This document shows positions 19,451 to 56,443 of a stretch of DNA of 64,000 bases, piece after piece. How positions within the stretch are numbered: position 1 is the stretch's first letter; the number at the start of each line of letters is the position of its first letter. The stretch lies in NCBI GenBank assembly GCA_964344035.1, contig CAYFLK010000011.1, forward strand, positions 339-64,338, in the 5' to 3' direction. Both the position numbers and the translations under genes were made by a program. A model generated the notes under the pieces. It saw only the letters and a list, made by a program, of their open reading frames with translations, made no database searches and was not told the origin of the DNA. The DNA is from an uncultured Pseudomonadota bacterium (GTDB lineage Bacteria; SAR324; NAC60-12).

Positions 19451-19514
19451 TTGGAACCCGCGAACGGATTCAGGTGCATCCGCGGGCCCCGGAAAAATCT
19501 GGAAAAGGGTTGAT

Positions 19515-24289: not shown

Positions 24290-24351
24290 AGCCGGTTGTA
24301 TTTGATATGACGCGATTGAGCTGGAGATGTCTGAGTGTAGACAAGTCCGCG

Positions 24352-27158: not shown

Positions 27159-27266
27159 GGATGTCCGGTTTTATAGATATCTGTAGCAGGAAAGAGCGGC
27201 TTGACTACAGCCGAATAAAAAGTTACAATCGTTTTTATTCCAAAACAACTCCATATAAGAATAAAA

Positions 27267-27509
27267 ATGCCATCATTAACAGTAAAAAATATTCCAGACG
27301 ATCTTTACTTGCTTTTGAAAGAATCAGCCAAACTACATTTCCGGAGCATGAACGGCGAAGTCCTTCATTGTCTGGAGACCTCCTTGCGCAGCCGCAAAGT
27401 GGAAGTAGAAGAACAATTAGCCGGATTCCGCCGTTTACGAAAAATGACAGCCTCACACATGCTGACGAATGAAGAACTCTTGAGTGCAAAGAATGAGGGA
27501 CGTGAATGA
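27267..27509 (+). CDS. vapB: Arc/FitA-type ribbon-helix-helix antitoxin (VapB-like)
   Basis: 80 aa. MPSLTVKNIPDDLYLLLKESAKLHFRSMNGEVLHCLE is the FitA/Arc-type RHH antitoxin N-terminus. It overlaps the downstream PIN gene by 4 nt. Confidence 0.75.
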   Translation: MPSLTVKNIPDDLYLLLKESAKLHFRSMNGEVLHCLETSLRSRKVEVEEQLAGFRRLRKMTASHMLTNEELLSAKNEGRE

Positions 27510-27907
27510 TCGTTGTTGATACCAATGTCATTTCATACCTCTTGCTGACCGGCGATAAAAGTCCTGATGCAGATAAATTGTTTGCGCATGATAATCATTG
27601 GATTGCTCCGCCATTGTGGCGCAGTGAGTTCAGGAATGTACTGTCTATCTATTTGCGCAAAGGAATCATATCCTTTGATGAAGCGCTCACTTTATCTGAG
27701 AATGCTGTAATGCTGATGAAAGAGAACGAGTACAATGTTTCTTTTTACGATGTTCTTAAACTGGTTCAAGACAGTACTTGCAGCGCTTACGACTGTGAAT
27801 TTGTAGCATTAGCCGATAATTTCGAGATACCCTTGTACACGATGGACAAAAAAATATTGCAGGATTTTCCAGCTACGGCTCGTTCTTTGACTGCCGTCAG
27901 TGATTGA
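27506..27907 (+). CDS. vapC: PIN-domain ribonuclease toxin VapC
   Basis: 133 aa. MIVVDTNVISYLLL.. carries the first PIN acidic residue. A conserved D/E layout follows (FYDVLKL, YTMDKK). Confidence 0.75.
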   Translation: MIVVDTNVISYLLLTGDKSPDADKLFAHDNHWIAPPLWRSEFRNVLSIYLRKGIISFDEALTLSENAVMLMKENEYNVSFYDVLKLVQDSTCSAYDCEFVALADNFEIPLYTMDKKILQDFPATARSLTAVSD

Positions 27908-27911
27908 TCCG

Positions 27912-37435: not shown

Positions 37436-39199
37436 ATGGCTGAAGGAGCCAGTCAAGACATCGTTACCGATGTCGGTAAATGGGAGTGGTCTGAGTTGTT
37501 GAAAAAGGAGGACTGGTGGGCCGTATGGCTCGGCTTTGCCCTCCTCATCGCGGGAATGATCATCTATTTCCCCAGCGCGCCGGACCAGAAAGCAAAACTC
37601 GATGCGGCGGAAGCCAAATACGGTGAGCAGGCAAAGCGCACCGACAAGTTCAAAACCATCGCCTGGTTTCAGCTAAGCGATGCAAAGAAGAAAGTGAAGG
37701 CAAAGAGCAGTCCGGCGGGTAAATGGCTCTCGACCTTCAGCAAGAAGACGCGCAAATGGTCCGCCAACCCGGTAGACGCTTTCTACTTGTCGCAGGAAAA
37801 GGCGGATGCCAAAAACGCGGCGGCAATGCCTAAGTATGAAAAAGCAAAGGCCGCTGAGAAAGCCGCCTTTGCCAATGCCGAGGCAGCAGAGCAGTTGGCT
37901 GAGGAGAAAGGATTCGCTGATGCGAAGCTTAACGCCGAGGCCAAAAAAGCCGTCGAAGACTGGAGGGACGCCAAGCTGATCTCCGGTAAAGCGAAGAAAA
38001 AAACCACTGCCAAAGCCTACAACCAGATCGGCTGGCTGATTTTTCTGGGGATAGCATTTGCCGTTTTCTTCGGTATCGGCGTCAGCTTCATGGGGCGCTC
38101 ATTCGGTGAGTTTGGCAAAGCCTTTGTTTTTGTTTTCCTGGTGGCCGTGGTCGCACAGCTATGCAGTTCCCAGGCGACGATGAAGTATTACGGCATCGGG
38201 TACGCCTTCTGGGCAATTTTTCTCGGCATGCTGATCAGCAACACGGTGGGTACGCCGAAGTGGGCGATGCCGGCGGTGCAGACCGAGTATTACATCAAAA
38301 CCGGGCTGGTCCTGCTGGGCGCGAAAATCCTGTTTGAGAAGATAATCACCATCGGCACGGCAGGTATATTCGTAGCCTGGGTGGTCACCCCGACTGTCTG
38401 GCTGGTCACCTACTGGTTCGGTCAGAAGATTGTCGCCATGCCTTCTAAGCGCTTGAACGCGACGATCTGTTCCGACATGTCTGTCTGCGGGGTTTCCGCT
38501 GCCATCGCCACCGCGTCGGCGTGTAAGGCGAAAAAAGAGGAACTGACTCTGGCGGTCGGACTCTCGCTGATTTTCACCTCGCTGATGATGATCATCATGC
38601 CCGCGGTGATCAAAGCGACTTTCCCGGTCGACAAGCAACTGATCCTGGGCGGCGCCTGGATGGGCGGGACCATCGACGCCACCGGCGCCGTGGCAGCAGC
38701 CGGGGCCTTTCTTGGCGAAAAGGCACTTTACGTGGCCGCCACGATCAAGATGATCCAGAACGTACTGATCGGCGTGATCGCCTTCTTCGTTGCTCTCTAT
38801 TTCACCACCAAGGTGGAAGTGGAAGAAACCGGAACGAAAGTCGGTCCGATGGAAATCTGGTACCGTTTCCCGAAATTCGTTCTTGGGTTCATCGTTGCCT
38901 CGATCGTCTTTTCCCTTTTCTTTTCCGGGTTTAACGACCAGGTCAAGGGTCTTGGGTCAACCATGGTCGATCAGGGTATTATCAAGGGAATGGGCGACCT
39001 TTTCCGGGGTTGGTTCTTTACCCTCTCGTTCGTCAGCATCGGGCTGGCAACCAACTTCAGGGAGTTGGGGCATCATTTCAAGGGCGGCAAACCGTTGACC
39101 CTGTATGTCTGCGGACAGTCTCTCAACCTCGTGTTGACGCTGCTGGTCGCCTATATCATGTTCTACATGGTATTCCCGGAACTGACTGCAACAATCTAA
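37436..39199 (+). CDS. membrane transporter (possibly YeiH/PSE putative sulfate-exporter family) with ~190-aa K/A/E-rich N-terminal extension
   Basis: 587 aa. Residues ~1-190 hold one transmembrane segment plus a lysine/alanine-rich coiled-coil-like region. Residues ~190-587 hold ~10 transmembrane helices with G-rich motifs ([39 protein letters not shown]). The family call is tentative. Confidence 0.45.
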
Positions 39200-39208
39200 G
39201 GAATTTCA

Positions 39209-39577
39209 ATGGAAACCCCTGCGGTCTCCGAACAAGGGTTCGCGGAAACCCGCGAACCCATGCGGAAACCTAAAGCGTTTGCCATCCTCGTTTCAACTTT
39301 CGCCCTGCTATGGGTCTTCGCGGTGTATGCCGGGCCCTGGCTGGCGGAACGGACCCCGGTGATGAAAGAAATCGTCCAGGTTGTCGAGGAACGGGATATC
39401 AACGCAAACGCTTATTTTTATAGCGAGATTGAAGCTTCCTACGACGGCGAAAATTATCTCAGGGAATCAATGGATCTAACCAGTCAAGAAAGGGGAAAAG
39501 GAGGATTTTTCTTTTTCTCCGGGGTTGCGATCTGCGTACTGATACTCTGGTTCGGGTTTCGCCATCTGCCGATGTGA
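39209..39577 (+). CDS. small membrane protein, two TM helices
   Basis: 122 aa. Two hydrophobic segments (AFAILVSTFALLWVFAVYAG and FFFFSGVAICVLILWFGF). Directly downstream of the transporter gene. Confidence 0.45.
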   Translation: METPAVSEQGFAETREPMRKPKAFAILVSTFALLWVFAVYAGPWLAERTPVMKEIVQVVEERDINANAYFYSEIEASYDGENYLRESMDLTSQERGKGGFFFFSGVAICVLILWFGFRHLPM

Positions 39578-39655
39578 ACACGAAATCTAATTCAACCTTT
39601 CACAAAACCCGGAAAAGCGCGCGGCGTTTCTCCGGGTTTTTCATTTCTGCACCGG

Positions 39656-40237
39656 ATGACTTCCATTGAAGAAAAACAGGAGCAGATCCTGGCCCACGAA
39701 CAGGGATTTGCCCGCCGGCTGGCGTCTGAGCTGATAGTAAAACCGGAATTGAGCCTGTGGATGATACTGATTCCCATCTTCTTCGTGTTTTTTTTCTTCA
39801 GGCTTAACAAGGTGAAAACGGGACGGGAGGAGTTTGTCCGGAATTTCATGATCACACGCCGCAACACTCTCGAGGAAACATATGACGCCATCCGCGAAGA
39901 GCGTAAACCGAATTTGGGCAAACTATGTGAAATCACCGATGCGCCCGCGGAAACTCACCCGGTATACCGGGACTGGGTCAAAGTCCTTTCCGCACACTAT
40001 CTTCGGCTTATCCAGTCCGGGGGTTCCGACTTTGAGGAAATGGTGAAAGCAGCTTACAAGTCTCGCAAAAGTTACTTGCTGTTCCTCAACCGCTTGAACC
40101 AGGCGGAAAAAACCTTCAACCGCGTGCTCAGCCAGCACATCAAGGACGCGGATGAAGGAGTCGGCGAGGTGATCAGGGAAATGGAAAAACACAGTGAAAA
40201 GCTGCGCAGGGACGATGCCGAACGCCTTTTCCATTGA
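39656..40237 (+). CDS. hypothetical membrane-anchored protein
   Basis: 193 aa. One transmembrane segment (LWMILIPIFFVFFFF), then a charged helical domain. No recognisable domain. Confidence 0.45.
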   Translation: MTSIEEKQEQILAHEQGFARRLASELIVKPELSLWMILIPIFFVFFFFRLNKVKTGREEFVRNFMITRRNTLEETYDAIREERKPNLGKLCEITDAPAETHPVYRDWVKVLSAHYLRLIQSGGSDFEEMVKAAYKSRKSYLLFLNRLNQAEKTFNRVLSQHIKDADEGVGEVIREMEKHSEKLRRDDAERLFH

Positions 40238-40713: not shown

Positions 40714-42096
40714 ATGAAGATTACGCTCCCGAGGCTGATGATTTCCGCAACCCACAAAAGCGCGGGCAAAACTACGCTCAGTCTGGGTTTGCTTAGTCAG
40801 TTCAGGGAAGCGGGTATGAAGCTCGGGGCATTCAAAAAAGGTCCGGACTACATTGACCCGATGTGGCTGCGTCGGGCCTGCGGGCGGGAGTGTTACAACC
40901 TGGACCCGTTTCTTATGCAAGAGGAAGGCTGCATCGATTCCTTTGTGCGCAACACTTCAGGTTGCGATGCAGCGCTGATCGAAGGCAATCACGGTCTTCA
41001 TGACGGCATGGCCCTGGACGGTTCGAACAGCAGCGCCGGTCTGGCCTCCGGCCTGAATCTTCCTGTCCTGCTGGTAGTCGACAGCCGTGGAATGAACCGC
41101 GGCGCAGCGGCGGTTGTCATCGGAATGCAGCAGATGCAGCCCCGGGTCCGGATTGCAGGGGTGGTGCTCAACCGTACAAAGAGCAAACGGCAGGAAGACA
41201 AGCAGCGACTTGCCATTGAACACCACTGCGGCATTCCCGTGCTGGGAGCAATCAGGGATGAACAGGCGGTTGCCATCAAAGAACGTCATCTGGGTTTGAC
41301 CACTGTGGAAGAAACAGGTGAAGCGGACCGGATAATTCAAGATGCATCCGAACTTGTTGCTCAGACCTGTGACATCGACGCGATACGTTCCCTGTTCAAT
41401 GAAGCGCCTCCATTGGAAAACTTAAGCATTGTTGCCGGCAGAAATCCAGTTGAGGAAAAGGTCCGGATTGGGGTGTTTCGTGACGCGGCCTTCTGTTTTT
41501 ACTATCCGGATAACCTGCAGGCCCTGCGTGACCAGGGCGCGAGCCTGGTTTTCATCGATTCGCTGCACGACCGGTCCCTGCCGGAACTGGACGGGCTGTA
41601 TATCGGGGGAGGGTTCCCGGAATCATTTTTTTCACAACTTGGCGACAATAAAGGCCTGATCAGCGACCTGCGGGAACTGGTCCGTGGTGGAATACCCCTG
41701 TATGCTGAATGCGGTGGACTGATCTACCTCTGCGAATCCGCCCATTATCAAGGACAAAAGCACAAACTGGCTGGAGTGCTTCCGTACGAAATCGGGTTCA
41801 ATAAACGGCCGCTCGGCTACGGATATATAGATCTCGAAAGCAAGCGCGAGAGCCGCTGGTTCGGCAAACAGGCAAGGTTCAAAGCCCATGAGTTCCATTA
41901 CTCGAAACCGATCGGGCAGGGATCTCGCGGCACATACCAATTCAACGTAATCAGGGGGTATGGCATCAACGGCAAGAAGGATGGAATCCTGAAGCGGAGT
42001 GTGTTTGCTTCCTATGCTCATTTGCATGCCCTAGCCACTCCGGTTTGGGCGAAAAGTTTTGTCGGTCTCGCGCAGGAATACAGCGCCCATGCATGA
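40714..42096 (+). CDS. dsrN: cobyrinic acid a,c-diamide synthase homologue DsrN (siroheme amidase)
   Basis: 460 aa. CbiA/CobB N-terminal ATPase (ISATHKSAGKTTLSLGLL) plus a C-terminal glutamine amidotransferase domain (GGFPE, C at LYAECGGLIYL). It heads the dsr cluster. Confidence 0.8.
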   Translation: MKITLPRLMISATHKSAGKTTLSLGLLSQFREAGMKLGAFKKGPDYIDPMWLRRACGRECYNLDPFLMQEEGCIDSFVRNTSGCDAALIEGNHGLHDGMALDGSNSSAGLASGLNLPVLLVVDSRGMNRGAAAVVIGMQQMQPRVRIAGVVLNRTKSKRQEDKQRLAIEHHCGIPVLGAIRDEQAVAIKERHLGLTTVEETGEADRIIQDASELVAQTCDIDAIRSLFNEAPPLENLSIVAGRNPVEEKVRIGVFRDAAFCFYYPDNLQALRDQGASLVFIDSLHDRSLPELDGLYIGGGFPESFFSQLGDNKGLISDLRELVRGGIPLYAECGGLIYLCESAHYQGQKHKLAGVLPYEIGFNKRPLGYGYIDLESKRESRWFGKQARFKAHEFHYSKPIGQGSRGTYQFNVIRGYGINGKKDGILKRSVFASYAHLHALATPVWAKSFVGLAQEYSAHA

Positions 42097-42305: not shown

Positions 42306-42641
42306 ATGACACTTGAACTGGATGGAAAAACCTATGACACCGATGAAAACGGTTACCTGCTCAATCTATCGGATTGGACCAGTGACCTCGCCGGACAACT
42401 GGCGAAGCTGGAGCATATTGATATGACGGAAAAGCACTGGGAAATCGTCAATTTCCTGAGGAATTACTACGAGGAGTACCAGATTGCTCCGGCGGTGAAG
42501 GTGCTGACCAAGGAAATAGCGAAACTGAACGACATCAAACGGAAAGAGGCTTCAACATTCCTCTATGATCTTTTTCCCAAGGGACCAGCGCTGCAGGCCT
42601 GCAAAATTGCCGGCTTGCCCAAACCAACTGGCTGTGTCTGA
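42306..42641 (+). CDS. dsrC: dissimilatory sulfite reductase gamma subunit / sulfur-carrier DsrC
   Basis: 111 aa. The C-terminus CKIAGLPKPTGCV has the two DsrC cysteines 10 residues apart, with the second cysteine penultimate. TusE/DsrC fold. Confidence 0.9.
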   Translation: MTLELDGKTYDTDENGYLLNLSDWTSDLAGQLAKLEHIDMTEKHWEIVNFLRNYYEEYQIAPAVKVLTKEIAKLNDIKRKEASTFLYDLFPKGPALQACKIAGLPKPTGCV

Positions 42642-42803: not shown

Positions 42804-44045
42804 ATGGAAGTGGCAGAACAAAGCGGAACCGAAGCTGAAGCGAAAACGCAGGAACAGGACGATAAGTTCCTTAACCCAACACCTATGCTGGATGAACTGG
42901 AGGAAGGCCCATGGCCAAGCTTCATCACAGGGCTCAAGGAACTTGCCGAACGTACAAAGAAACCGATGCTTCGCGGGGTGATGGACCAGCTCGAATATTC
43001 TTACCAGACCAGAATGGGATACTGGAAAGGCGGACTGGTTACCGTGGAGGGTTATGGGGGAGGGATAATCGCCCGTTATTCCATGGTCAAAGACAAGATC
43101 CCGGAAGCCTCTGAGTTTCACACTTTTCGTGTGCAGGCGTCTCCGGGGCTGGTCTACAACACCAAGGCGCTGCGCAAACTCTGCGACATCTGGGAGGAAC
43201 ATGGATCCGGACTGATTGCATTGCACGGACAAACCGGGGACGTGATGCTTCAGGGCATCAAGGACACCGAGACCCAGGCGTGTTTTGACGAAATCAACCA
43301 GGCAGGCTGGGACATGGGCGGCGCGGGCGCTGGAATGCGTACCGGCGTTTCCTGCATCGGCCAGGCCCGCTGTGAACAGGCCTGTTACGACACTCTCAAA
43401 ATGCATGAGCGTGTGATGAAGGAATATGTAAGCGATGTCCACCGCCCGGAATTCAACTACAAGTTCAAGTTCAAGTTCTCCGGATGTCCAAACGATTGCA
43501 CGAACGCGATTTTTCGGTCAGATTGCGCGGTGATCGGAATGTGGCGCGATTCCATCCAGATTGACAAACAAGCCGCAAAAGCCTGGATTGAACAGAAAGG
43601 AATGGACAATCTGGTCAACAACGTTATCAGCCGTTGTCCCACCAAAGCGATAACTCTTAAGGACGGTGAACTCGAGATAGACAACAAAAATTGTGTACGC
43701 TGCATGCACTGCCTGAATGTCATGCCCAAAGCCCTATCTCCCGGGAAAGAACGGGGAATTGCGGTGCTCCTTGGGGGGAAAAACATCCTCAAGGTAGGCG
43801 CCATGGGCGGAACAATGGTAGTGCCCTTCATGAAGATGGAAACCGACGAAGACATCGAGGAATTCATCGAGCTGATGGACAACGTGATGGAGTGGTGGGA
43901 TGACAACGGTCTTGACCACGAACGGCTCGGAGAAACGCTTGAACGGGTCGGCCTGAAACATTTTCTTGATGCAATGGACTTGGAGCCGACTGCCGACATG
44001 GTCGCCCATCCGCGGACAAACCCCTATTTCAAAGCCGCCTACTAA
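42804..44045 (+). CDS. dsrA: dissimilatory sulfite reductase alpha subunit
   Basis: 413 aa. Sirohaem-[4Fe-4S] Cys clusters (CIGQARCEQAC) and a ferredoxin insert (CPNDCTNAI, CVRCMHC). Followed by dsrB. Confidence 0.9.
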   Translation: MEVAEQSGTEAEAKTQEQDDKFLNPTPMLDELEEGPWPSFITGLKELAERTKKPMLRGVMDQLEYSYQTRMGYWKGGLVTVEGYGGGIIARYSMVKDKIPEASEFHTFRVQASPGLVYNTKALRKLCDIWEEHGSGLIALHGQTGDVMLQGIKDTETQACFDEINQAGWDMGGAGAGMRTGVSCIGQARCEQACYDTLKMHERVMKEYVSDVHRPEFNYKFKFKFSGCPNDCTNAIFRSDCAVIGMWRDSIQIDKQAAKAWIEQKGMDNLVNNVISRCPTKAITLKDGELEIDNKNCVRCMHCLNVMPKALSPGKERGIAVLLGGKNILKVGAMGGTMVVPFMKMETDEDIEEFIELMDNVMEWWDDNGLDHERLGETLERVGLKHFLDAMDLEPTADMVAHPRTNPYFKAAY

Positions 44046-44076: not shown

Positions 44077-45153
44077 ATGGCCATTGAACGAGCATGGAAA
44101 ACGGTTGAATCCGGACCGTATGACTACCAGGAAGGCCTTCATCCGGTTATCGTAAAGAACTACGGGAAATGGGCCTATCATGAGGAACCGAAACCCGGGG
44201 TCTTGAAACATGTTGCTGAAAACGGAGACGTTCTCTGGACGGTCCGTGCCGGCACGCCCCGTCAGGATTCCGTGGATTTCGTGCGCAGGCTCTGCGATGT
44301 CGCGGACAAGTACGCAGACGGCTTTCTGCGTTTCACCGTGCGCAGCAACGTAGAATACATGACCCCCGATGAAGACAAAGTGCAGCTGCTGATTGATGAG
44401 CTGGAAGGAATGGGACTGCCGGTGGGAGGGACCGGTCCTTCGGTCTCCCAGGTCGCCCACACCCAGGGATGGCTGCATTGCGACATACCCGCTTCGGACG
44501 CATCCGGAGTGGTGAAATCAATGATGGACGCGCTCATAGACGATTTCAAATCCATGCGCATGCCTAACCGGGTGAAACTGGTCACCCAGTGCTGTGAACT
44601 TAACTGCGGTGGGCAGGGCGACATATCGATCATTGTCAAACACACCCGCCCGCCGCGCATCAACCACGAAATCCTCGGAGAAGTCTGTGAACTTCCCAAG
44701 GCCGTCGCCCGCTGTCCGGTGGCCGCGATTCGCCCGACGGTTGTCAACGGCAAGCGTTCGCTGATGGTTGACGAAGAGAAATGCATGTACTGCGGCGCCT
44801 GCTTCGGGGCCTGCCCGGCAATGGAAATCAATCATCCGGAACATTCTAAATTTGCCGTCTGGGTTGGCGGAAAGAACTCGAACGCGCGCAGCAGACCTTC
44901 CCTCGGATACCTGGTGGCCCACAACCTGCCCAACAATCCTCCGCGCTGGCCCGAGATCAACGATGTGGTCAAACGCATCCTTGAAGCCTACAGAAACGGC
45001 GGCCGCCACTGGGAACGCCTGGGTGAGTGGATCGACCGCATCGGCTGGAAGAACTTTTTTGCGGAAACCGGTCTGACCTTCGACGAGGACATGATCGACA
45101 ATTACCGTCACGCGCGGACGACCTTCAACCAGTCCGCACATGTTCGATTCTAA
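44077..45153 (+). CDS. dsrB: dissimilatory sulfite reductase beta subunit
   Basis: 358 aa. Motifs CCELNCGGQGD and CPVAAI, CMYCGACFGACP are the DsrB cluster and ferredoxin motifs. Confidence 0.9.
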   Translation: MAIERAWKTVESGPYDYQEGLHPVIVKNYGKWAYHEEPKPGVLKHVAENGDVLWTVRAGTPRQDSVDFVRRLCDVADKYADGFLRFTVRSNVEYMTPDEDKVQLLIDELEGMGLPVGGTGPSVSQVAHTQGWLHCDIPASDASGVVKSMMDALIDDFKSMRMPNRVKLVTQCCELNCGGQGDISIIVKHTRPPRINHEILGEVCELPKAVARCPVAAIRPTVVNGKRSLMVDEEKCMYCGACFGACPAMEINHPEHSKFAVWVGGKNSNARSRPSLGYLVAHNLPNNPPRWPEINDVVKRILEAYRNGGRHWERLGEWIDRIGWKNFFAETGLTFDEDMIDNYRHARTTFNQSAHVRF

Positions 45154-45168: not shown

Positions 45169-46965
45169 ATGACCACCAAAACCATTGAATCCAATCCGAT
45201 CCTCGATTTCGCGGAGGCTTACGAGTTCCCTGAGTTTAATGAAGAAAAAGGAACAAAAAAAGTTGTCGCTTTCGGAGATCAGAGCCACAAATGCCCGGTT
45301 TACCTCCGGCAGGAGCCGCCTTGCAACGAAGGATGTCCGGCGGGGAACGACATCCGCGCCTGGCTGACGATCGTCCAGCAGACGGAATTGAAGAAGCGCG
45401 GCTGGGAGGAATCCTATGAACTGCTGTGGCGGGAAGTTAGCAAAACCACCCCCCTGCCCGCGGTCTGCGGACGTGTCTGTCCACATCCCTGTGAACCGGT
45501 ATGCAACCGTAATGAAAAAGAAGGAGCGGTGAACATCAATGCCTACGAACGCTGGATCGGGGATTATGCCATCCAGCACGGGCTTGATCATGAGAAGCTT
45601 ACCAATGAGGTGAAACCCCAGAAAATAGCGGTCGTCGGGTCCGGACCGGCCGGGTTGAGCTGCGCGTTTCAAATGGCGCGGCGTGGGTACCCGGTGACCA
45701 TCTTCGAATCATTCGATAAACCCGGAGGCATGCTGCGTTACGGCATTCCCCCCTACCGCCTGCCGCGCGACATCATCGATGCGGAGGTGGCTGCGATTGA
45801 AAGAATGGGGGTGGATATCCGTTGCAACACTGTCATTGGCGAGGACATCAGCCTCGATGATTTGAAAGCCGAATATGATGCAGTCTTCCTCGGAATCGGC
45901 GCCCACAAGGGTATTTCACTGGGTTTCGACGGAGAAGACGCATCGAATGTGATGAGCGGAGTCGAGTTTCTTAATCGGGTCAATGCCGGCGAGATGATGG
46001 AAGTGGGAAATAATGTGGTGATCATCGGAGGGGGCGATACGGCGATTGACGCCGCCCGCGTTTCCCTCCGGCTCAGTGCATTGGACGGTGGGCAGGCAGT
46101 TTTCGACGCCGCCCGGGTCTCACGGCGGCTGGGTGCGAAAGTGACCATTCTATACCGGCGCACCCGCGAAGAGATGCCGGCCATCGACAGGGAGGTAGAC
46201 GAGGCCCTCGAAGAAAACATTGATATCCAGTACCTCTCCGCGCCGGTAGCTATCCGCACTGAAAACGGCAAGGCGGTGGCGGTTAAATGCCTGCGCATGG
46301 AACTGGGGGAGCCTGATGAAAGCTGCCGCCGCCGCCCGGTCCCGATTGAAGGATCGGAATTCGAGGTTGAATGCAGCACCCTCATCCCGGCTGTCAGCCA
46401 AGAACCTGACTGGCGGGACGCCGATAGATACGTCAGCGGCAAAAACTGGCTGAATCCCGGAGCTGACGGGACGGTTGAAGAGGGGGTCTATGCGGGTGGG
46501 GATGCCATCGAGCTGGGATTGGCGTGTATTGCCATCGGCAATGGCCGCAAGGCCGCTGAACAGATGCATGCCAAGTTTTCCGGAGAACAACCGCCCCGGA
46601 CGCAATGGGTGAAAACAGTCCCTCATGAGAAGCTGCGCCTGGAACATTATGCGTCGTGTGAACGCAACAAACGCGGATACCTTTCTCCCGAAGAAAGGTT
46701 GGCGGGTGGACTTGATCTCGAAATCGACAAGGGTATCAGCGAAGAACAGTTCAGGGAAGAAGCCGGACGCTGCATGAGCTGCGGCCTGTGTTTCGAGTGC
46801 TATGAGTGCATGATGTTCTGTCCGCAGACTGCGATTACCAGGTTTACGGAGAATCCTGTCGGCGAAGTGATGTACACCTATTACAACAAATGTGTTGGAT
46901 GTCATCTCTGCGCGGTAGTATGTCCCTGTAATTATATCCAGATGGGTATGTCCGATGAACTCTGA
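45169..46965 (+). CDS. dsrL: DsrL, NAD(P)H:acceptor oxidoreductase (glutamate-synthase small-subunit-like, with C-terminal ferredoxin domain)
   Basis: 598 aa. N-terminal Fe-S Cys motif (CPVYL..CNEGCPAGN). FAD motif KIAVVGSGPAGLSCA. NAD(P) motif VVIIGGGDTAIDAARV. C-terminal CMSCGLCFECYEC..CPQ / CVGCHLCAVVCPC. Confidence 0.8.
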   Translation: MTTKTIESNPILDFAEAYEFPEFNEEKGTKKVVAFGDQSHKCPVYLRQEPPCNEGCPAGNDIRAWLTIVQQTELKKRGWEESYELLWREVSKTTPLPAVCGRVCPHPCEPVCNRNEKEGAVNINAYERWIGDYAIQHGLDHEKLTNEVKPQKIAVVGSGPAGLSCAFQMARRGYPVTIFESFDKPGGMLRYGIPPYRLPRDIIDAEVAAIERMGVDIRCNTVIGEDISLDDLKAEYDAVFLGIGAHKGISLGFDGEDASNVMSGVEFLNRVNAGEMMEVGNNVVIIGGGDTAIDAARVSLRLSALDGGQAVFDAARVSRRLGAKVTILYRRTREEMPAIDREVDEALEENIDIQYLSAPVAIRTENGKAVAVKCLRMELGEPDESCRRRPVPIEGSEFEVECSTLIPAVSQEPDWRDADRYVSGKNWLNPGADGTVEEGVYAGGDAIELGLACIAIGNGRKAAEQMHAKFSGEQPPRTQWVKTVPHEKLRLEHYASCERNKRGYLSPEERLAGGLDLEIDKGISEEQFREEAGRCMSCGLCFECYECMMFCPQTAITRFTENPVGEVMYTYYNKCVGCHLCAVVCPCNYIQMGMSDEL

Positions 46966-46985
46966 TCCCCTTTCAGGAGACTCAC

Positions 46986-47351
46986 ATGTATGAAAAACTG
47001 ATCGGCATGGTCGAAGATGCAGTTGATCTTTCCCGCCGCTGGGCCCAGTCAGGCTGGAAGACACGCTTTGGCGAGCGTGGGGTGGAAGCCTGTTCTCTCT
47101 CAGAGGCCCTGGACCTTCCACCCAATTTTGTCTATCGTGAGGAAGCCGTCGATTACTGGACCCAGGTGCAGATGATTGGCAGCGATGCGGCCGAATCCGG
47201 GAAAAAAGCGATTGAGGCCTTAAAAAACGGGGACCTTAAGCGTGCCGAGGATTCTGTTTATTTCTCAATGTACATTGAAAAACCCTATGCGCCCAACAGC
47301 AAAACCTGGAAGCCGGTGTACGAGGCAGTCAAACAGGAGATGAACGGATAG
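46986..47351 (+). CDS. hypothetical protein embedded in dsr cluster
   Basis: 121 aa and soluble, with no recognisable motif. RBS GGAGA upstream. It occupies the dsrL-tusA gap. Confidence 0.5.
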   Translation: MYEKLIGMVEDAVDLSRRWAQSGWKTRFGERGVEACSLSEALDLPPNFVYREEAVDYWTQVQMIGSDAAESGKKAIEALKNGDLKRAEDSVYFSMYIEKPYAPNSKTWKPVYEAVKQEMNG

Positions 47352-47464
47352 GTCGATAGTTAAAAAGACAAAAACCTCTTTGTTCCATAAGCAGGTGAAG
47401 TCCGTTTTATGGATCGAACCGCCTGGGTGTTCCCAACTATTTAACCAAAAAAAGGAGACTATAT

Positions 47465-47704
47465 ATGAGTGAGGAAATCAAATTTGACCAGGAACTCGAC
47501 TGCAGCGGACTTTCCTGTCCCCTGCCGGTCCTGAAAACCAAAAAAGCAATTAATACCCTCAATTCCGGCGATGTGCTTAAGGTGATTTCCACCGATCCCG
47601 GATCGAACAAGGATATGCCTTCATGGAGCAAACGCACCGGCAACCCGATCCTCAAGACCGAGGATCAGTCGGGGGCCTTCATTTTTTACATCCAGCGCAA
47701 ATGA
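47465..47704 (+). CDS. tusA: TusA-family sulfurtransferase
   Basis: 79 aa. LDCSGLSCPLPVLKTKKAI has the CPxP persulfide-carrying motif. RBS AAGGAGA upstream. Confidence 0.85.
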   Translation: MSEEIKFDQELDCSGLSCPLPVLKTKKAINTLNSGDVLKVISTDPGSNKDMPSWSKRTGNPILKTEDQSGAFIFYIQRK

Positions 47705-47728: not shown

Positions 47729-48088
47729 ATGAAATTTGGAATACTTATCAAAGAAGGCCCCTACACACACCAGGCATCCGACAGCGCCTTCCGCTTTGTC
47801 AGGACCGCCCTTGAAAAGGGACACACGATCGAGGGGGTGTTCTTGTACAACGACGGCGTTAACAATGCAACCAAACTGATGGACCCTCCCCAGGACGACC
47901 GACACCTGTCAAATCTCTGGTCCGAACTCGGTGGTGAATTGGGAGACGAAATCATGGTCTGTATTGCCGCCGCAAAACGACGGGGGATTGTGGAGGAGGT
48001 GATCCCGAAAAACACATCCATCACAGGTTTGGGGGAGTTGACCGACTTGACCATCCGTGCTGATCGCCTGGTCACTTTTGGAGATTGA
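47729..48088 (+). CDS. dsrE: DsrE (sulfur relay protein, DsrEFH complex)
   Basis: 119 aa. MKFGILIKEGPYTHQAS.. is the DsrE/TusD fold. The conserved active Cys lies in IMVCIAAAKRRG. Confidence 0.85.
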   Translation: MKFGILIKEGPYTHQASDSAFRFVRTALEKGHTIEGVFLYNDGVNNATKLMDPPQDDRHLSNLWSELGGELGDEIMVCIAAAKRRGIVEEVIPKNTSITGLGELTDLTIRADRLVTFGD

Positions 48089-48092
48089 TGCC

Positions 48093-48482
48093 ATGGAAGA
48101 GTACGATTACGACGATGACGAAATAGTAAAGAAGATCATGCATGTCATGCGGCGTGCCCCGCACGGCACAATCTATACCTATGAAGGATTGGAAATGATC
48201 CTCATCATGGCATCCTACGATCAGGACATCACCGTCGTCTTCATTGACGACGGGGTGTATGCGCTGAAAAAGGACCAGGACACCAGCGCTATCGGCATCA
48301 AAGGATTTGCGAAAACATTCCTGGCTCTGGACGGGTACGATGTTGAGAAGCTTTATGTCGATCAGCAGTCACTGGAGGAGCGGGGACTGACGGAAGATGA
48401 CCTTGTGGTGCCGGTAGAAGTTATGAGTGCCGAAGAAATCGGCAGATTGATGACCGAACAGGACGAGGTGATCCATCACTGA
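48093..48482 (+). CDS. dsrF: DsrF (sulfur relay protein)
   Basis: ATG at 48093 follows GGAGA. 129 aa, TusC/DsrF-like. The ORF track extends it to 48057, overlapping dsrE. Confidence 0.75.
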   Translation: MEEYDYDDDEIVKKIMHVMRRAPHGTIYTYEGLEMILIMASYDQDITVVFIDDGVYALKKDQDTSAIGIKGFAKTFLALDGYDVEKLYVDQQSLEERGLTEDDLVVPVEVMSAEEIGRLMTEQDEVIHH

Positions 48483-48556: not shown

Positions 48557-48850
48557 ATGCTTCACACCATCAATAAATCCCCTTTTACATCAAATACATT
48601 TGAAACATGTCTTCGTTTTCTGCGGTCCGGGGATCCGGTATTGTTCTATGAAGACGGCGTCTACACCGTGCAGACTTCCCACAAGTTTTCCGGGAGGATA
48701 GCAGAGCTGCAGGCATCCAACCCGGTATTCGCCCTGAAGCCCGACCTCGAAGCTAGGGGGATTGCTGACACTGTTGAGGGAGTAACCCTGATTGACTACG
48801 GAGGTTTTGTTGATCTCGTCGAAGAACACACAGTCAACAGCTGGCTGTGA
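48557..48850 (+). CDS. dsrH: DsrH (sulfur relay protein)
   Basis: 97 aa. Conserved N-terminal Cys in TCLRFLRSGD. TusB/DsrH size. Confidence 0.8.
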   Translation: MLHTINKSPFTSNTFETCLRFLRSGDPVLFYEDGVYTVQTSHKFSGRIAELQASNPVFALKPDLEARGIADTVEGVTLIDYGGFVDLVEEHTVNSWL

Positions 48851-51002: not shown

Positions 51003-51500
51003 ATGAGCGAAATTCACCACTTCCTCAGGGAAAACCGGGAAGCAGTGCTGGATCAATGGCTCACCAGCGCCTTCAAAATGTTCCCCGAACAGTCCAGGCT
51101 GCTTATGGTCAGCAATCCGGACCCGTTCACCAGCCCCATCCGTCATGCGCTCAGCAAGGGTATGGCGCAACTGCTGGACCGGTTTTGTGTAGAAGAACCC
51201 ATAACCGGGGGAAAAGAGCTTGAGGAACTCGGGCGGCTCCTTGCGGTTCAGGAGATGCCGCCCTCCCAGTCCCTTCCCTTCATTTTTGAATTGAAAACCG
51301 TGGTCCGGAAACTTGCAGGGAAAAATAATAAACGCTCCGGATTCTCCGACAGGGACTGGGATGAATTTCAGGACCGGCTTGAGCAGGTGCTTTTCCATCT
51401 GTTCGATTGTTATCTGAAACATCGAGAAAAGATATACCAACTGAAAGCCGAAGAAATGAAGCAACGGACATACATGCTGCTTAGGAGGGCCACCCAATGA
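51003..51500 (+). CDS. dsrT: DsrT-like protein (RsbRD N-terminal-like domain)
   Basis: 165 aa, helical. Its position immediately before dsrMKJOP matches dsrT in other dsr loci. FLRENREAVLDQWL is a globin-sensor/RsbR N-like start. Its stop overlaps the dsrM start (ATGA). Confidence 0.5.
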   Translation: MSEIHHFLRENREAVLDQWLTSAFKMFPEQSRLLMVSNPDPFTSPIRHALSKGMAQLLDRFCVEEPITGGKELEELGRLLAVQEMPPSQSLPFIFELKTVVRKLAGKNNKRSGFSDRDWDEFQDRLEQVLFHLFDCYLKHREKIYQLKAEEMKQRTYMLLRRATQ

Positions 51501-52489
51501 AAGCAATCGCCCCATTGTTAACGGTTTTGGCAATCGCGCTGCTGGCGTATCTTGGCGCGGGAGTAGCCGGGCTAACCGGCCTGTTTGGAATCGTCATTCC
51601 CTATCTTTCGTTTGCACTTTTCATAGGCGGCTTCGTGTACCGCATCTTTGACTGGGCTGGCTCGCCGGTGCCGTTTCGCATTCCGACCACTGCCGGACAG
51701 TCTCGTTCGCTCGACTGGATCCGCCAAGACAAACTGGAAAGTCCGTCCGGGTTCTGGGGAGTGACGGGCCGTGTGTTGCTTGAAGTGCTGCTGTTCCGTT
51801 CACTCTTCCGTAACACCAAGGCGGAAATCACCGCCGGTCCAAACCTCGCCTACGGTTCAAGCAAGTGGCTTTGGCTAGGCGGGCTGGCGTTTCACTGGTC
51901 GATGCTGATCATTGTCCTACGCCATTACCGTTTTTTTCTGGCGCCGATTCCGGGGTTTCTGGAAGCGCTGGATGCGGCGGACGGTTTTCTCCAGATCACC
52001 CTGCCGGCCTTTTACCTAACCGATCTGGTGTTCGTGGCCGCTGTCACATACCTGTTCGCGCGCAGACTGGTGGACGCGAAAATAAATTACATTTCCCTGG
52101 CCAGTGATTTCTTTCCGCTCTACCTGCTGTTGGGCATCGCGCTGAGCGGCATCTGGATGCGTTACTTCGACAAGGTCGATGTCGCGCAAGTAAAGCTGCT
52201 GATGCAGAGCCTGATTGCCTTCAGCCCGGAACTTCCGGGACCAATCGGCTGGATGTTCTATGTCCACCTGTTCATGGTATGCGTGCTTGCCGCGTATTTC
52301 CCGTTCAGTAAACTGATGCACATGGGCGGCATCTTCCTCAGCCCAACTAGAAACCTGGCAACCAACAGCCGTGAATACAGACACGTCAACCCATGGAATC
52401 CTCAGATAAAAATACGCACTTACAGAGAATACGAGGACGAATTCCGCGAAAAAATGAAAAAAGCGGAACTGCCGATTGAAAGGGGATGA
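51497..52489 (+). CDS. dsrM: DsrM, NarI-like dihaem cytochrome b membrane subunit
   Basis: 330 aa. Five transmembrane helices with conserved His in helices 2 and 5. It overlaps dsrK by 4 nt. Confidence 0.8.
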   Translation: MKAIAPLLTVLAIALLAYLGAGVAGLTGLFGIVIPYLSFALFIGGFVYRIFDWAGSPVPFRIPTTAGQSRSLDWIRQDKLESPSGFWGVTGRVLLEVLLFRSLFRNTKAEITAGPNLAYGSSKWLWLGGLAFHWSMLIIVLRHYRFFLAPIPGFLEALDAADGFLQITLPAFYLTDLVFVAAVTYLFARRLVDAKINYISLASDFFPLYLLLGIALSGIWMRYFDKVDVAQVKLLMQSLIAFSPELPGPIGWMFYVHLFMVCVLAAYFPFSKLMHMGGIFLSPTRNLATNSREYRHVNPWNPQIKIRTYREYEDEFREKMKKAELPIERG

Positions 52490-54132
52490 ACATGACCACA
52501 AACCCACCACCAGTTGCAGAACTGGAAAAATCCATCGAGGAAACTCAGAATCTCCTCAAAGACCGCCGCCCTCCCGGGGAATGGCCGGATCTGCCCGTGA
52601 AGGTTGAAGAGGGCAAATGGTGCTACCCGGCGAAACCGGAAATTCTTGAAAGACACGGTTTCCCAAACCCGAGGAAGTGGGATGTTGAAGAGGCGGACTG
52701 GCAGCTTCCGGACAACTGGGAGGAAATCATCTTTGAAGGGATGCGTGAACGGCTTAAAAAATTCCGTTCGTTCAAACTGTTCATGGATGTCTGTGTACGC
52801 TGCGGAGCATGCGCGGACAAGTGCCATTTCTTTCTCGGCACCGGCGACCCGAAAAACATGCCGGTGCTGCGCGCTGAACTGCTCCGTTCAGTATACCGAG
52901 GGGAATTTACGCTGGCGGGGAAGTTTCTGAAGGAAATGGTCGGCGCGCGGAAGCTGACCAAGGAGGTGATCAAGGAGTGGTTTCTTTATTTCCATCAATG
53001 CACCGAGTGCAGGCGGTGCTCGGTTTACTGCCCGTTTGGCATCGATACCGCGGAAATCACTATCCTCGGGCGTGAACTGCTGCACCTGGTGGGCGTCAAC
53101 ATCAACTGGATCCTTGAACCTGCGGCTAACTGCAACCGCACGGGCAATCACCTCGGCATCGAACCGCATACTTTCAAACAGGTGGTGGAATCCCTTGTCG
53201 AAGATATCGAAGACCTTACCGGTATCGAGGTCGAACCAACTTTCAACCGCAAAGGCGCCGAAATCCTCTTTATCACTCCCTCCGGAGATTTGTTTGCCGA
53301 TCCCGGAGTGTACACGATGATGGGATACATGCTCCTCTTTCACCACATCGGACTCGATTACACCCTCAGCACCTATGCTTCCGAAGGCGGGAATTTCGGG
53401 CTCTTTACTTCGCATGACACGATGAAGAAACTCAACGCAAAGATGTTTCATGAAGCTGAGCGATTGGGAGTCAAATGGATCCTGGGTGGGGAGTGTGGGC
53501 ACATGTGGCGTGTGGTGCACCAGTACATGGACACAATGAACGGTCCGGCGGATTTTCTGGAAGAACCGGTTTCCCCGATCACCGGCACCCGGTTCCGAAA
53601 TGCGGCATCGACAAGAATGGTGCATATCGCGGAATTCACTGCTGACCTGATACACCAGGGTAAGCTCAAGCTGGACCCGAGAAGGAATGATCATATAGTC
53701 TCCACCTTCCATGATTCATGCAACCCCGCCAGGGCGATGGGAATGCTTGAGGAGCCTCGGTATGTGCTGAGGAACGTTTGCAACAACTTCCATGAAATGC
53801 CCGAGAACACGATCCGGGAACATACTTTCTGCTGCGGCGCGGGAAGCGGTCTGAACACCGACGAGTTCATGGATACACGGATGCGTGGAGGATTCCCACG
53901 AGCGAACGCTGTCAGACACGTGCAGGAAAAGCATGATGTAAACGCGCTGGTAAACATCTGTGCCATTGATCGCGCCACTTTGCCTCCCCTGATGAAATAC
54001 TGGGTGCCGGAAGTCTCTGTATACGGCCTTCACGAACTGGTCGGCAATGCGCTGGCGATGGATGGAGAGGAAGAGCGGACCGAAGACCTGCGCGAGGATG
54101 AAATGGTTGAATTCGAGGAGGAAGATGAATGA
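52486..54132 (+). CDS. dsrK: DsrK, HdrD-like Fe-S protein with CCG domains
   Basis: 548 aa. Ferredoxin Cys motifs CVRCGACADKC and CTECRRCSVYCPFG. Cys-rich CCG regions FHDSCNPAR and FCCGAGSG. Confidence 0.85.
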   Translation: MNMTTNPPPVAELEKSIEETQNLLKDRRPPGEWPDLPVKVEEGKWCYPAKPEILERHGFPNPRKWDVEEADWQLPDNWEEIIFEGMRERLKKFRSFKLFMDVCVRCGACADKCHFFLGTGDPKNMPVLRAELLRSVYRGEFTLAGKFLKEMVGARKLTKEVIKEWFLYFHQCTECRRCSVYCPFGIDTAEITILGRELLHLVGVNINWILEPAANCNRTGNHLGIEPHTFKQVVESLVEDIEDLTGIEVEPTFNRKGAEILFITPSGDLFADPGVYTMMGYMLLFHHIGLDYTLSTYASEGGNFGLFTSHDTMKKLNAKMFHEAERLGVKWILGGECGHMWRVVHQYMDTMNGPADFLEEPVSPITGTRFRNAASTRMVHIAEFTADLIHQGKLKLDPRRNDHIVSTFHDSCNPARAMGMLEEPRYVLRNVCNNFHEMPENTIREHTFCCGAGSGLNTDEFMDTRMRGGFPRANAVRHVQEKHDVNALVNICAIDRATLPPLMKYWVPEVSVYGLHELVGNALAMDGEEERTEDLREDEMVEFEEEDE

Positions 54133-54505
54133 GCGTGTATTGATTTTCGGGGGACTGGCAATCTTCCTGCTGTTGGTCCTGTTCCCGTTCTGGCCGGACT
54201 CCGAACGCCACGCAAACCAGCCGCCGGCTCTGGCCATCAACACTGTGAAGGAGCAGTGCGTAGCTCCCACTGAGTTCATGCGAGCAAACCACATGCAGCT
54301 GCTCGATCAGTGGCGCGACGATGTGGTCCGCCGCGGGGAACGGGTGCATATCACCACGGACGGACGGACATTTGAAAAAAGCCTGACCCATACCTGCCTA
54401 AACTGTCACGAAAACAGGGAGATGTTTTGTGAGCAGTGCCATGGCACACTGAATGTACAGACCTATTGCTGGGAATGCCACGTCACCCCCATGGAGGTCC
54501 AATGA
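54125..54505 (+). CDS. dsrJ: DsrJ, periplasmic trihaem cytochrome c
   Basis: ATG 54125 ([17 protein letters not shown], a signal anchor). Three CxxCH motifs (CLNCH, CEQCH, CWECH). It overlaps the dsrK stop. Confidence 0.85.
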
Positions 54506-55272
54506 AAAATGAAAAACGCAGGGATTTCCTGAGAAAAACGGGTCTTGGCGCGCTTGCCGGGATTGGTGTGGCGGCGGGTCTAACCGCGCGGAAACAGGCT
54601 GAAGCGGAAAGTGCATCTGAAGTGCACCGGGCGGGCAAAGTGCGCTGGGGAATGGTAGTCGATGCACGGAAATGCCCGGACGAATGCACGAAATGCATTG
54701 ATGCATGTCACCTGGGCCACAACGTTCCGGAGTTTGATAACTCCAAAGACGAGATAAAGTGGGTCTGGAAAGCTCCGCGTGAAAAGGTTTTTCCCAGCAA
54801 GAGCATGCAGTTCTCGTCAAAACAGCAACGGCAACTGCCAATTCTCACCCTGTGCAACCACTGCGCGAACCCTCCCTGCACCCGCGTATGCCCGACTCAG
54901 GCGACTTTCAAACGCTGGGACGGAATCGTGCAGATGGATTTCCACCGCTGCATAGGCTGCCGTTTCTGCATGGCGGCCTGTCCTTACGGGTCACGCAGTT
55001 TCAACTGGCGGGATCCAAGGCCTGCGATCGGAAAAATAAATCCGGAATTTCCCACCCGGGAACGCGGGGTGGTTGAAAAATGCAACTTCTGCGTGGAAAG
55101 GCTGGAAAAGAAGAAACTCCCGTTGTGCGTGGAAAGCTGTCCGGAAAAAGCGCTGACGTTCGGGAACCTCAATGATCCGGATTCCGGAATCCGAAAAACT
55201 CTCCGGGAAAACCAGACCATCCAGCGCAAGCCTGAACTCGGGACCCGCCCTTCCGTCTTCTACATAACATGA
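54502..55272 (+). CDS. dsrO: DsrO, periplasmic ferredoxin-like 4Fe-4S subunit with Tat signal
   Basis: ATG 54502. Twin-arginine motif [16 protein letters not shown]. Four Cys clusters (CxxCxxx[35 protein letters not shown]...C). It overlaps the dsrJ stop (ATGA). Confidence 0.85.
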
Positions 55273-55279
55273 GGGAGCC

Positions 55280-56443
55280 ATGATTGAAAACGCACTCAAG
55301 GGAAACCGGCAATACTGGGGGCTTATCACGCTGCTCACGCTGCTGGTGCTGTTGGGCGTGCTTGCCTACAGCAGGCAACTGTCCGAGGGTTTGACAATTA
55401 CCGGCATGAGCAGGGATGTCAGCTGGGGAATTTACATTGCCCAGTTCACTTTCCTGGTCGGGGTCGCCGCCTCGGCGGTGATGGTAGTGCTCCCGTACTA
55501 TCTTCATGATTACAAGGAATTCGGAAAGGTGGTCCTGCTGGGGGAATTCCTCGCGGTGTCGGCGGTGACGATGTGCCTGATGTTCATCTTTGCAGACATG
55601 GGGAAACCCGAACGGGCGCTGAACATTATTTTCTATCCCAGTCCCAAATCGATCCTGTTCTGGGACATGATTTCACTCAGCGGATACCTGCTGCTCAACC
55701 TGGTGAGTGCGTGGGTGGTGCTCACCGCGGAAAGCAAGGGGGTGCCGCCGCCGGGTTGGATCAAACCGGTGATTTTCCTTTCCATCCCCTGGGCAGTCAG
55801 CATCCACACCGTCACTGCTTTCATCTATGCGGGTCTTCCCGGGCGTCACCTCTGGCTGACAGCGGTGCTTGCCCCGCGTTTTCTCGCTTCCGCTTTCTGT
55901 GCCGGACCGGCACTGCTGATCCTGCTGAGTCTTCTGCTGTGCAAATTCGCGAGTTATGACATTGGCGACAAGGCTATCCGCAAGCTGGCGGTGATTGTCA
56001 CCTATGCGGGAGTGATAAATTTCTTCCTGGTCGGGATGGAGTTTTTCACCGCCTTCTACAGCAGCATCCCCTCTCACATGCACGGATTGCAGTATCTCTT
56101 CGTCGGTTTAGAAGGCGGGAGCAATCTTGTGCCGTGGATCTGGTTTTCATTCATTATCGGCATCCTGTCAGTATTAATTCTCCTGTTTCCCAGTTTGCGC
56201 GCCGACACTCCATGGTTGGCATGGGCCTGCGCGGGGTTGTTCGTGTCGCTTTGGATCGACAAAGGGATCGGCTTGATCCTGGGAGGTTTTGTTCCCACGC
56301 CGATGGAAGAAGTGGTGGAATATACCCCGAGTTTCCTTGAATTAATCATCACTCTCGGCATCTGGGCTTTTGGTTTTCTCGTCCTCTCCATATTTTACAA
56401 AACCGTCATCAGCATCAAGCGCCGGAACCTCGGCGTAACCTGA
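55280..56443 (+). CDS. dsrP: DsrP, NrfD/PsrC-like integral membrane quinone-interacting subunit
   Basis: 387 aa with ~10 transmembrane helices. NrfD-family fold. Confidence 0.8.

Follow-up and report, generated by a model that had tools for sequence, protein, structure and literature searches.

A DsrU homologue and a tusA gene between dsrL and dsrE in the oxidative-type dsr cluster of a SAR324-related lineage

In green sulfur bacteria the published order of the dsr genes is dsrNCABLUEFHTMKJOPVW (bioRxiv 10.1101/172254), and the function of DsrU, encoded between dsrL and dsrE, is unknown (PMC6018796). For Deltaproteobacteria bacterium UBA9617 and NP955, a related cluster, dsrNCABL-hyp-tusA-dsrEFH, has been described in which a tusA-like gene takes the place of dsrQ; UBA12577 and others carry dsrNCABL-hyp-dsrQ-dsrEFH (Löffler et al. 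2020, PMC7596348, section 17). A 64,000-nucleotide (nt) stretch of contig CAYFLK010000011.1 (assembly GCA_964344035.1), hereafter called the window, was analyzed here with respect to two genes that lie between dsrL and dsrE: an open reading frame (ORF) for a protein of 121 amino acids (aa) and a gene for TusA. Both had been placed there in a first-pass annotation of the window, and their positions were confirmed (Table 1). The gene order obtained from the ORF list and family searches is dsrN-C-A-B-L-[121 aa]-tusA-dsrE-F-H-(CMD/Rieske)-cysG-dsrT-M-K-J-O-P, where CMD stands for a carboxymuconolactone-decarboxylase-like domain. The two genes fall in the central part of an oxidative dsr operon of the Chlorobi/SAR324 type, which is carried on a SAR324-related contig.

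This order is identical to that of the UBA9617 and NP955 clusters, including the unnamed gene after dsrL and the tusA-like gene before dsrEFH, and the window adds the CMD-Rieske gene and a fused cysG after dsrH. The placement of tusA and the gene order are therefore already in print (PMC7596348). In that paper the 'hyp' gene is left unnamed and unanalyzed, and by gene order it is a putative counterpart of the 121-residue protein of the window. The 121-residue ORF is a further member of the known, uncharacterized DsrU family. The operon itself adds little, being a Chlorobi-like oxidative dsr cluster of a SAR324-related lineage with tusA moved beside dsrEFH. What is added here is the strict linkage of the family to dsrL, its breadth, the purifying selection acting on it, and a confident structural model without a neighbour in the PDB. 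Taken as a whole, the locus is probably, if not securely, best explained by DsrU being a putative non-catalytic partner of DsrL and by TusA being an orthologue of the Chlorobi protein whose gene has moved to the dsrU/dsrE junction.

The 121-residue protein and the DsrU family

The 121-residue protein is very probably a DsrU family member. A tblastn-confirmed scan of one genome per Genome Taxonomy Database (GTDB) species with a 10-sequence query returned 16 loci at 44-56% identity (E 1e-34 to 2e-43), originating from Chlorobium, Prosthecochloris, Chlorobiaceae metagenome-assembled genomes (MAGs), C. limicola Frasassi, one SAR324 MAG, and two Desulfobacterales MAGs. Identity was 44-52% over 115-121 residues (E 1e-34 to 1e-41) to the product of the sole gene between dsrL and dsrE in loci L015-L028 (Chlorobium, Prosthecochloris, and C. 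limicola). Complete green-sulfur-bacterial loci have the order (tusA)-dsrN-C-A-B-L-X-E-F-H-T-M-K, in which X is a single gene between dsrL and dsrE, and X was identified as DsrU because of this position and its homology to the Chlorobiaceae genes at the dsrU position. The green-sulfur dsrU, represented by that of the Chlorobaculum tepidum cluster CT2251-CT2238, shares with the window ORF its position after dsrL and before the dsrEFH block, its length (120-123 aa), and the surrounding order N-C-A-B-L ... E-F-H ... T-M-K-J-O-P. Unlike the green-sulfur clusters, the window has tusA between dsrU and dsrE, and its host is SAR324-related rather than a member of the Chlorobia.

Beyond the scan, family members were found in Desulfobulbaceae, including the cultured Desulfoprunum benzoelyticum, in Magnetococcales, and in Deltaproteobacteria MAGs; ACD89781.1 of C. 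limicola DSM 245 (UniProt B3EHK1) belongs to the same family. The first-pass annotation had suggested a lineage-specific protein at the DsrU position. The position, directly after dsrL, was borne out, but the lineage specificity was not, given the homologues in Chlorobi, SAR324, Desulfobacterales, Desulfobulbaceae, and Magnetococcales. In published work, Dsr proteins of SAR324 group with their Chlorobia counterparts (Klier et al. 2024, PMC11406059), which fits DsrU being common to both groups, and Acidobacteria with dsrL have been reported without DsrU (PMC6018796). DsrU has been named for well over a decade, yet the NCBI and UniProt entries consulted still give its family members as 'hypothetical protein', and Pfam and NCBIfam scans give no match.

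That the ORF might be spurious, without homologues or conservation, had been named as a refuting outcome in its first description. A frame of this kind, or one decaying between dsrL and tusA, would account for the blank Pfam and NCBIfam scans and for a word-indexed search that found only three relatives. An exhaustive HMMER search of 1.84 billion proteins, however, returned 39 cluster-representative homologues at E<=1e-3 (28 at E<=1e-10). In the loci examined the protein keeps 30-56% identity over at least four phylum-level groups, and its gene is always at the same position. The ratio of nonsynonymous to synonymous substitution rates (dN/dS, Nei-Gojobori) was 0.10-0.30 in 14 homologue pairs, indicating purifying selection. 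The ORF starts with ATG 20 nt past the dsrL stop (46965), a good ribosome-binding site (AGGAG) lies 7 nt upstream, and the AlphaFold2 model, computed from a 28-sequence family alignment, has a mean predicted local distance difference test (pLDDT) score of 96.1 and a predicted template modeling (pTM) score of 0.86. The spurious-frame explanation is refuted by the homologues, the dN/dS values, the model, and the ribosome-binding site, and its likelihood is practically nil. Two overlapping frames, an antisense ORF at 46150-47121 and a +2-frame ORF at 47017-47175, were rejected as shadow ORFs of dsrL and dsrU.

The protein is soluble and carries no recognizable motif, in agreement with its first description, and it is a cytoplasmic, acidic (isoelectric point 4.9), all-alpha protein. 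Helices were predicted at residues 3-17, 19-22, 38-42, 51-80, 84-101, and 109-120; residues 27-34 form a short hairpin. In an alignment of 28 sequences G23, W24, A41, and W58 are invariant and W19, F28, G29, L38, A54, A75, and E98 are nearly so. Neither a Cys nor a cofactor motif is conserved across this family alignment; the sole Cys of the window protein, C36, is not conserved, and a C-terminal Cys is absent. A Pfam scan of the 28 aligned members gave scattered chance matches only, the most frequent being DUF3717 in three of them, and a sequence-profile search of the PDB gave nothing below E 1.4.

Several candidate relatives were rejected. The best Foldseek match in the PDB (E 0.44) was to the four-helix bundles of plant invertase/pectin-methylesterase inhibitors and reflects generic helical similarity, not homology. 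Two of the 39 HMMER matches, P0033 (7782 aa) and P0040 (472 aa), are repeat proteins without a Pfam domain that match only through a W-x-Q-x-x-M-x-G-x-D-like repeat. A 122-residue ORF at 39209-39577 was considered as a DsrU paralogue among the neighbouring genes and discarded at an hhalign probability of 0.3%.

Linkage to dsrL and the proposed role of DsrU

Linkage was assessed in 49 fetched loci and the window, which together hold 30 distinct full-length DsrU homologues. The co-occurrence of the ORF with dsrL, proposed as a check in the first-pass annotation, was seen in these loci: wherever a locus includes sequence 5' of dsrU, the adjacent gene on that side is dsrL in the same orientation, at gaps of 14-412 nt, commonly 14-55 nt. 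The gene downstream of dsrU is dsrE for 18 of the 30 homologues, tusA for two (the window and TARA contig L036), dsrT for five, and a non-dsr gene for the remaining five. No dsrEFH follows dsrL and dsrU in L013, L014, and L037 (Desulfobacterales), in L029, L030, and L035 (Desulfobulbaceae, where narGHJI follows), or in L031 and L032. The order in L031 is dsrA-B-L-U and then groES, and in L014 dsrA-B-L-U is followed by an amidase gene and other unrelated genes; a tusA-dsrE2-like pair lies on the opposite strand at a distance of 5 kb. Five Chlorobi-like loci (L024, L040, L041, L043, and L045) read dsrL-dsrU-dsrT-dsrM-dsrK, with no dsrEFH between dsrU and dsrT. Of the genes around dsrU, dsrL is more strictly associated with it than any gene of the sulfur relay. 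The constant neighbour of dsrU is dsrL and not the TusA-DsrEFH relay, also where dsrEFH is not nearby, and no Cys is conserved.

The DsrL that precedes DsrU has a YRR motif in 10 distinct homologues and lacks it in 19. This motif is the defining mark of DsrL-2, the NADP(H)-type DsrL (Löffler et al. 2020, PMC7596348). DsrL-1B or Prosthecochloris-like DsrL-2 was reported in the same paper from green sulfur bacteria, Magnetococcus, Desulfobulbaceae, and unclassified Deltaproteobacteria, and the taxa of the DsrU family overlap those so reported. Reductive-type clusters are given in its available part as dsrABD and dsrABDL-2, with no gene named after dsrL.

Because DsrU is kept next to dsrL even where dsrEFH and tusA are not nearby, and because its taxa overlap those with DsrL-1B or Prosthecochloris-like DsrL-2, it is tentatively proposed to be a putative non-catalytic partner of DsrL, or of the rDsrAB-DsrL module, rather than a step of the sulfur relay; we regard this as a serious possibility that falls a little short of probable. 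DsrU would then serve as an adaptor, stabilizer, or modulator in the NAD(P)+-reducing electron-transfer module, in which rDsrAB and DsrL would pass electrons from sulfur oxidation to NAD(P)+. A more specific form of this proposal appears rather doubtful, namely that in organisms with DsrL-1B or Prosthecochloris-like DsrL-2 the oxidative rDsrAB-DsrL module has DsrU as an obligate and hitherto overlooked third member. In that case DsrU, with a helical fold absent from the PDB and no cofactor, would act as an adaptor or allosteric modulator, gating or coupling electron flow between rDsrAB/DsrC and NAD(P)+ as an oxidative-side counterpart of DsrD. DsrD is a winged-helix protein of about 78 aa. It activates reductive DsrAB allosterically, and its gene follows dsrAB (dsrABD; PMC8794893). 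Both are small cofactor-less proteins encoded directly after catalytic dsr genes, and the possible analogy as modulators of a DsrAB module comes from genomic position only; unlike DsrD, DsrU has about 120 aa, is helical, and follows dsrL rather than dsrB.

Two other roles were weighed against a partnership with DsrL. A part in the cytoplasmic sulfur relay, as a component or as an adaptor that might dock TusA to DsrEFH or DsrEFH to DsrC, would explain why dsrU stands at the dsrL/dsrE junction next to tusA in the window. It would also suit the 18 homologues encoded directly upstream of dsrE and the two upstream of tusA-dsrE, and the Cys within the last four residues of 16 Chlorobi-type members is reminiscent of the DsrC/TusE C-terminal arm. 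Such a role is nevertheless quite improbable, given the lack of a Cys conserved across the family or at the C-terminus of the window protein, and the persistence of dsrU after dsrL in the Desulfobacterales, Desulfobulbaceae, L031, L032, and five dsrT loci named above, where no dsrEFH follows. Deltaproteobacteria with this DsrL-2 type moreover lack dsrEFH altogether, according to Löffler et al. (PMC7596348). A maturation or assembly factor, acting in iron-sulfur (Fe-S) or flavin insertion into DsrL or in sirohaem-amide handling and not as a stable partner, is likewise unlikely. The tight, co-oriented linkage with dsrL, the presence of the cofactor genes dsrN and cysG in the same cluster, and a small helical protein without catalytic motifs speak for such a factor, but no similarity to known Fe-S, flavin, or sirohaem chaperone families was found in Pfam, NCBIfam, or the PDB. 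In addition, recombinant C. tepidum DsrL-1B from E. coli was active, and DsrU is not mentioned in this connection in the available part of the report (PMC7596348).

Several observations weigh against the proposed partnership of DsrU with DsrL. The dsrAB genes also adjoin dsrU in all loci, so that a partnership with DsrAB or DsrC is inseparable from one with DsrL, and dsrU also directly adjoins dsrE for 18 of the 30 distinct homologues. No DsrL-DsrU fusion protein occurs among the 39 family matches, and the Foldseek search of the PDB gave no informative structural neighbour for the fold. A short C-terminal tail with Cys (ECA, ACC, SCC, KCA, or CCS) is carried by 16 of the 30 homologues, all of them encoded in Chlorobi-type loci (L001, L017, L019, L020, L022-L025, L027, L028, L040, L041, L043-L045, and L047), and could hint at thiol chemistry in that subgroup; unlike these members, the DsrU proteins of the window, SAR324, Desulfobacterales, and Desulfobulbaceae have no such C-terminal tail. 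The name DsrU itself was reached through the published gene order and other Chlorobiaceae and not through the C. tepidum protein.

The well-defined family and its linkage to dsrL offer a concrete idea, open to testing, of what a so far unassigned gene does in a pathway of global importance, and the finding would weigh more if the rDsrAB-DsrL module proved to require DsrU. In metagenomes, DsrU might also serve as an additional marker for rDsrABL modules of the Chlorobi/SAR324 type.

Two sets of loci are of separate interest. In L029 (1-8830, Desulfobulbaceae MAG GCA_008933635.1) and L035 (a JGI contig), dsrL-dsrU is followed by a gene for a 180-aa cytochrome c-like protein and by narGHJI, and an oxidative-type DsrL module thus adjoins a respiratory nitrate reductase. 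L031 and L032 (GCA_964344355.1 and run ERR2281803) represent a second rdsrAB-dsrL-dsrU set, which is more divergent, is preceded by a hemerythrin gene, and encodes a DsrU 32% identical to that of the window. Contigs identical to the window came from runs ERR2281799-ERR2281802, which are labelled PRJEB17505; ERR2281803 is numerically adjacent. If it belongs to that project, at least two DsrU-bearing lineages co-occur there.

TusA at the dsrU/dsrE junction

The product of the second gene matches PF01206 over residues 10-78 with 89 bits against a cut-off of 28.6. The gene has an AGGAG ribosome-binding site, and dsrE starts 24 nt downstream (47729). A TusA with a CPxP cysteine immediately upstream of dsrE had been described in the first-pass annotation, with the caveat that the conserved Cys might prove absent on alignment; it is present. 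C18 of the LSCPLP segment (C18-P-L-P) aligns with the catalytic Cys19 of E. coli TusA (LRCPEP; PDB 3LVJ/1DCJ), and the catalytic Cys is invariant in 14 dsr-linked TusA sequences. The protein scores 53.5 bits with NF001423, the E. coli-type TusA equivalog model, for which the cut-off is 78 bits. It is a TusA-family protein, by its Cys18 a predicted persulfide carrier of the standard kind, and, by the NCBI threshold, not the E. coli transfer RNA-thiolation equivalog.

The window TusA is 52-58% identical to the TusA encoded immediately upstream of dsrN in many Chlorobi loci, and was on this basis taken as its orthologue. It is 51% identical to the product of a tusA beside a dsrE2-like gene in Desulfobacterales MAGs and 86% identical to the TusA of L036, a second lineage in which tusA is also at the dsrU/dsrE junction (dsrL-U-tusA-dsrE). 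The window contains one tusA only. On the simplest reading, the dsr-linked tusA, originally at the 5' end of the cluster, may have been relocated to the dsrU/dsrE junction in the window lineage.

By analogy with the biochemistry of Allochromatium and cable bacteria, TusA would hand sulfane sulfur to DsrE and from there to DsrC, for subsequent oxidation by rDsrAB. Persulfide donation from TusA to DsrE has been shown biochemically in A. vinosum (PMC7596348) and Electronema (PMC13293266). The rhd-tusA-dsrE2 locus of Allochromatium vinosum has in common with the window a TusA with a CPxP cysteine and the presumed feeding of sulfane sulfur to DsrE; unlike that locus, the window has its tusA inside the dsr operon, and no rhodanese or dsrE2 gene was identified among the searched ORFs around the window cluster. 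Cable bacteria and sulfur disproportionators have a yeeE-tusA-dsrEFH type II operon (YTD cluster), for which transfer from TusA to DsrE and on to DsrC was reported in vitro (PMC13293266). Direct co-transcription of tusA with dsrEFH is a point of likeness to the window, from which the YTD cluster differs in that the window DsrEFH is of classical type I and is accompanied by Chlorobi-like oxidative-type dsrAB and dsrL; DsrU is not described in the available part of that source. A dsr-linked tusA had initially been regarded as atypical. Outside Allochromatium this view is not upheld by the Chlorobi loci, where tusA is upstream of dsrN in the same cluster, or by the tusA-dsrEFH arrangement of cable bacteria (PMC13293266).

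The 113-nt spacer between dsrU and tusA gave no Rfam match at E<0.4, no significant structure (fold z-score -0.29), and no promoter- or terminator-like site.

Layout of the cluster and neighbouring genes

The assignment of the contig to a SAR324-related lineage follows from the UvrD helicase of the window, which shares 59% identity along its entire length with many 'SAR324 cluster bacterium' proteins; its closest relatives are 66-67% identical. Features of the dsr cluster and its surroundings are listed in Table 1. Several assignments made use of L009, which together with L010 is identical to the window.

Table 1. Features of the window discussed in the text.
Feature	Position	Strand	Evidence
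Fused TRAP (tripartite ATP-independent periplasmic) permease	16817-19450		
ADP-forming acyl-CoA ligase	22124-24289		
ThDP (thiamine diphosphate) enzyme	24352-25959		
3-sulfinopropanoyl-CoA desulfinase	25959-27158	-	NF042439 662 bits vs cut-off 600
Family III CoA-transferase	27912-29180		
587-aa membrane protein, YeiH-like PF03601	37436..39199	+	Pfam PF03601 E 4e-42; upstream of dsr cluster
dsrN (sirohaem amidase, CobB/CobQ-like)	40714..42096	+	Pfam GATase_3, AAA_26, CbiA
dsrC	42306..42641	+	PF04358 E 4e-40; TIGR03342 146.8 bits
dsrA (Chlorobi/SAR324-like, oxidative-type cluster context)	42804..44045	+	NIR_SIR domains on identical contig L009
dsrB	44077..45153	+	NIR_SIR and Fer4 domains
dsrL, type DsrL-2	45169..46965	+	NF009410 609.8 bits vs cut-off 516; Fer4_20, Pyr_redox_2, Fer4_21
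dsrU homologue, 121 aa	46986..47351	+	Homologues, position after dsrL, dN/dS, AlphaFold2 model
dsrU-tusA spacer, 113 nt	47352..47464	+	No element detected
tusA, 79 aa, catalytic Cys18 in CPLP	47465..47704	+	PF01206 E 1.8e-25
dsrE	47729..48088	+	TIGR03012 116.7 bits vs cut-off 89.25; PF02635
dsrF (start uncertain: 48057 or 48093)	48057..48482	+	TIGR03010 139.8 bits vs cut-off 94.15
dsrH	48557..48850	+	PF04077 E 2.6e-27; TIGR03011 103.7 bits vs cut-off 49.2
CMD (CMD/AhpD-like) and Rieske [2Fe-2S] fusion, 208 aa	48903..49529	+	Pfam CMD 2.8e-7, Rieske 6.6e-13
cysG (sirohaem synthase), 465 aa on L009	49579..50976	+	NF007922 570 bits vs cut-off 400
dsrT	51003..51500	+	RsbRD_N E 1.9e-10
dsrM	51497..52489	+	Pfam Nitrate_red_gam (identical contig L009)
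dsrK	52486..54132	+	Pfam Fer4_8/Fer4_17 (identical contig L009)
dsrJ	54125..54505	+	No Pfam match; assigned by position
dsrO	54502..55272	+	Pfam Fer4_11 (identical contig L009)
dsrP	55280..56443	+	Pfam NrfD (identical contig L009)

The product of dsrN is 55-60% identical to that of the same-position gene in Chlorobi and SAR324 loci, and both DsrC cysteines are present in the C-terminus ...CKIAGLPKPTGCV. DsrA is 67-77% identical to Chlorobi DsrA, and DsrB 72-81% identical to the DsrB proteins of Chlorobi and SAR324. The YRR motif is present in the translation of the window dsrL (...TILYRRTREE... / ...KVTILYRRTREEMP...); as in DsrL-2, it lies in the nucleotide-binding domain, and the insertions of DsrL-1A are absent. 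This DsrL has 598 aa and is 65-68% identical to Prosthecochloris-type DsrL and 38-41% identical to YRR-less Chlorobium DsrL. The window DsrEFH is of type I, all three subunits scoring above the cut-offs of TIGR03012, TIGR03010, and TIGR03011, respectively. Two alternative gene calls for dsrF, of 141 aa and 129 aa, are found on L009 and L010, which are identical contigs.

The window cysG is the fused equivalent of Chlorobi dsrV and dsrW. The dsrT product shares 27-39% identity with its positional counterparts in Chlorobi and SAR324 loci, and dsrMKJOP gave tblastn matches to Chlorobi loci. The CMD-Rieske fusion between dsrH and cysG is missing from the Chlorobi and SAR324 loci examined.

Upstream of dsrN, at 37436-40237 on the forward strand, the gene for the PF03601 protein is followed by genes for two predicted membrane proteins of 122 aa and 193 aa without a family match. 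The PF03601 domain forms the C-terminal part of the 587-residue protein, and its N-terminal 230 aa have no family assignment. In Chlorobiales loci L001-L005 a gene for a shorter PF03601 protein lies upstream of dsrN, flanked by a rhodanese gene and tusA.

An apparent organosulfur module occupies 16817-29180, about 14 kb upstream of the dsr cluster, and comprises the first five features of Table 1. This module could release sulfite from 3-sulfinopropionate in the very organism that has DsrAB.

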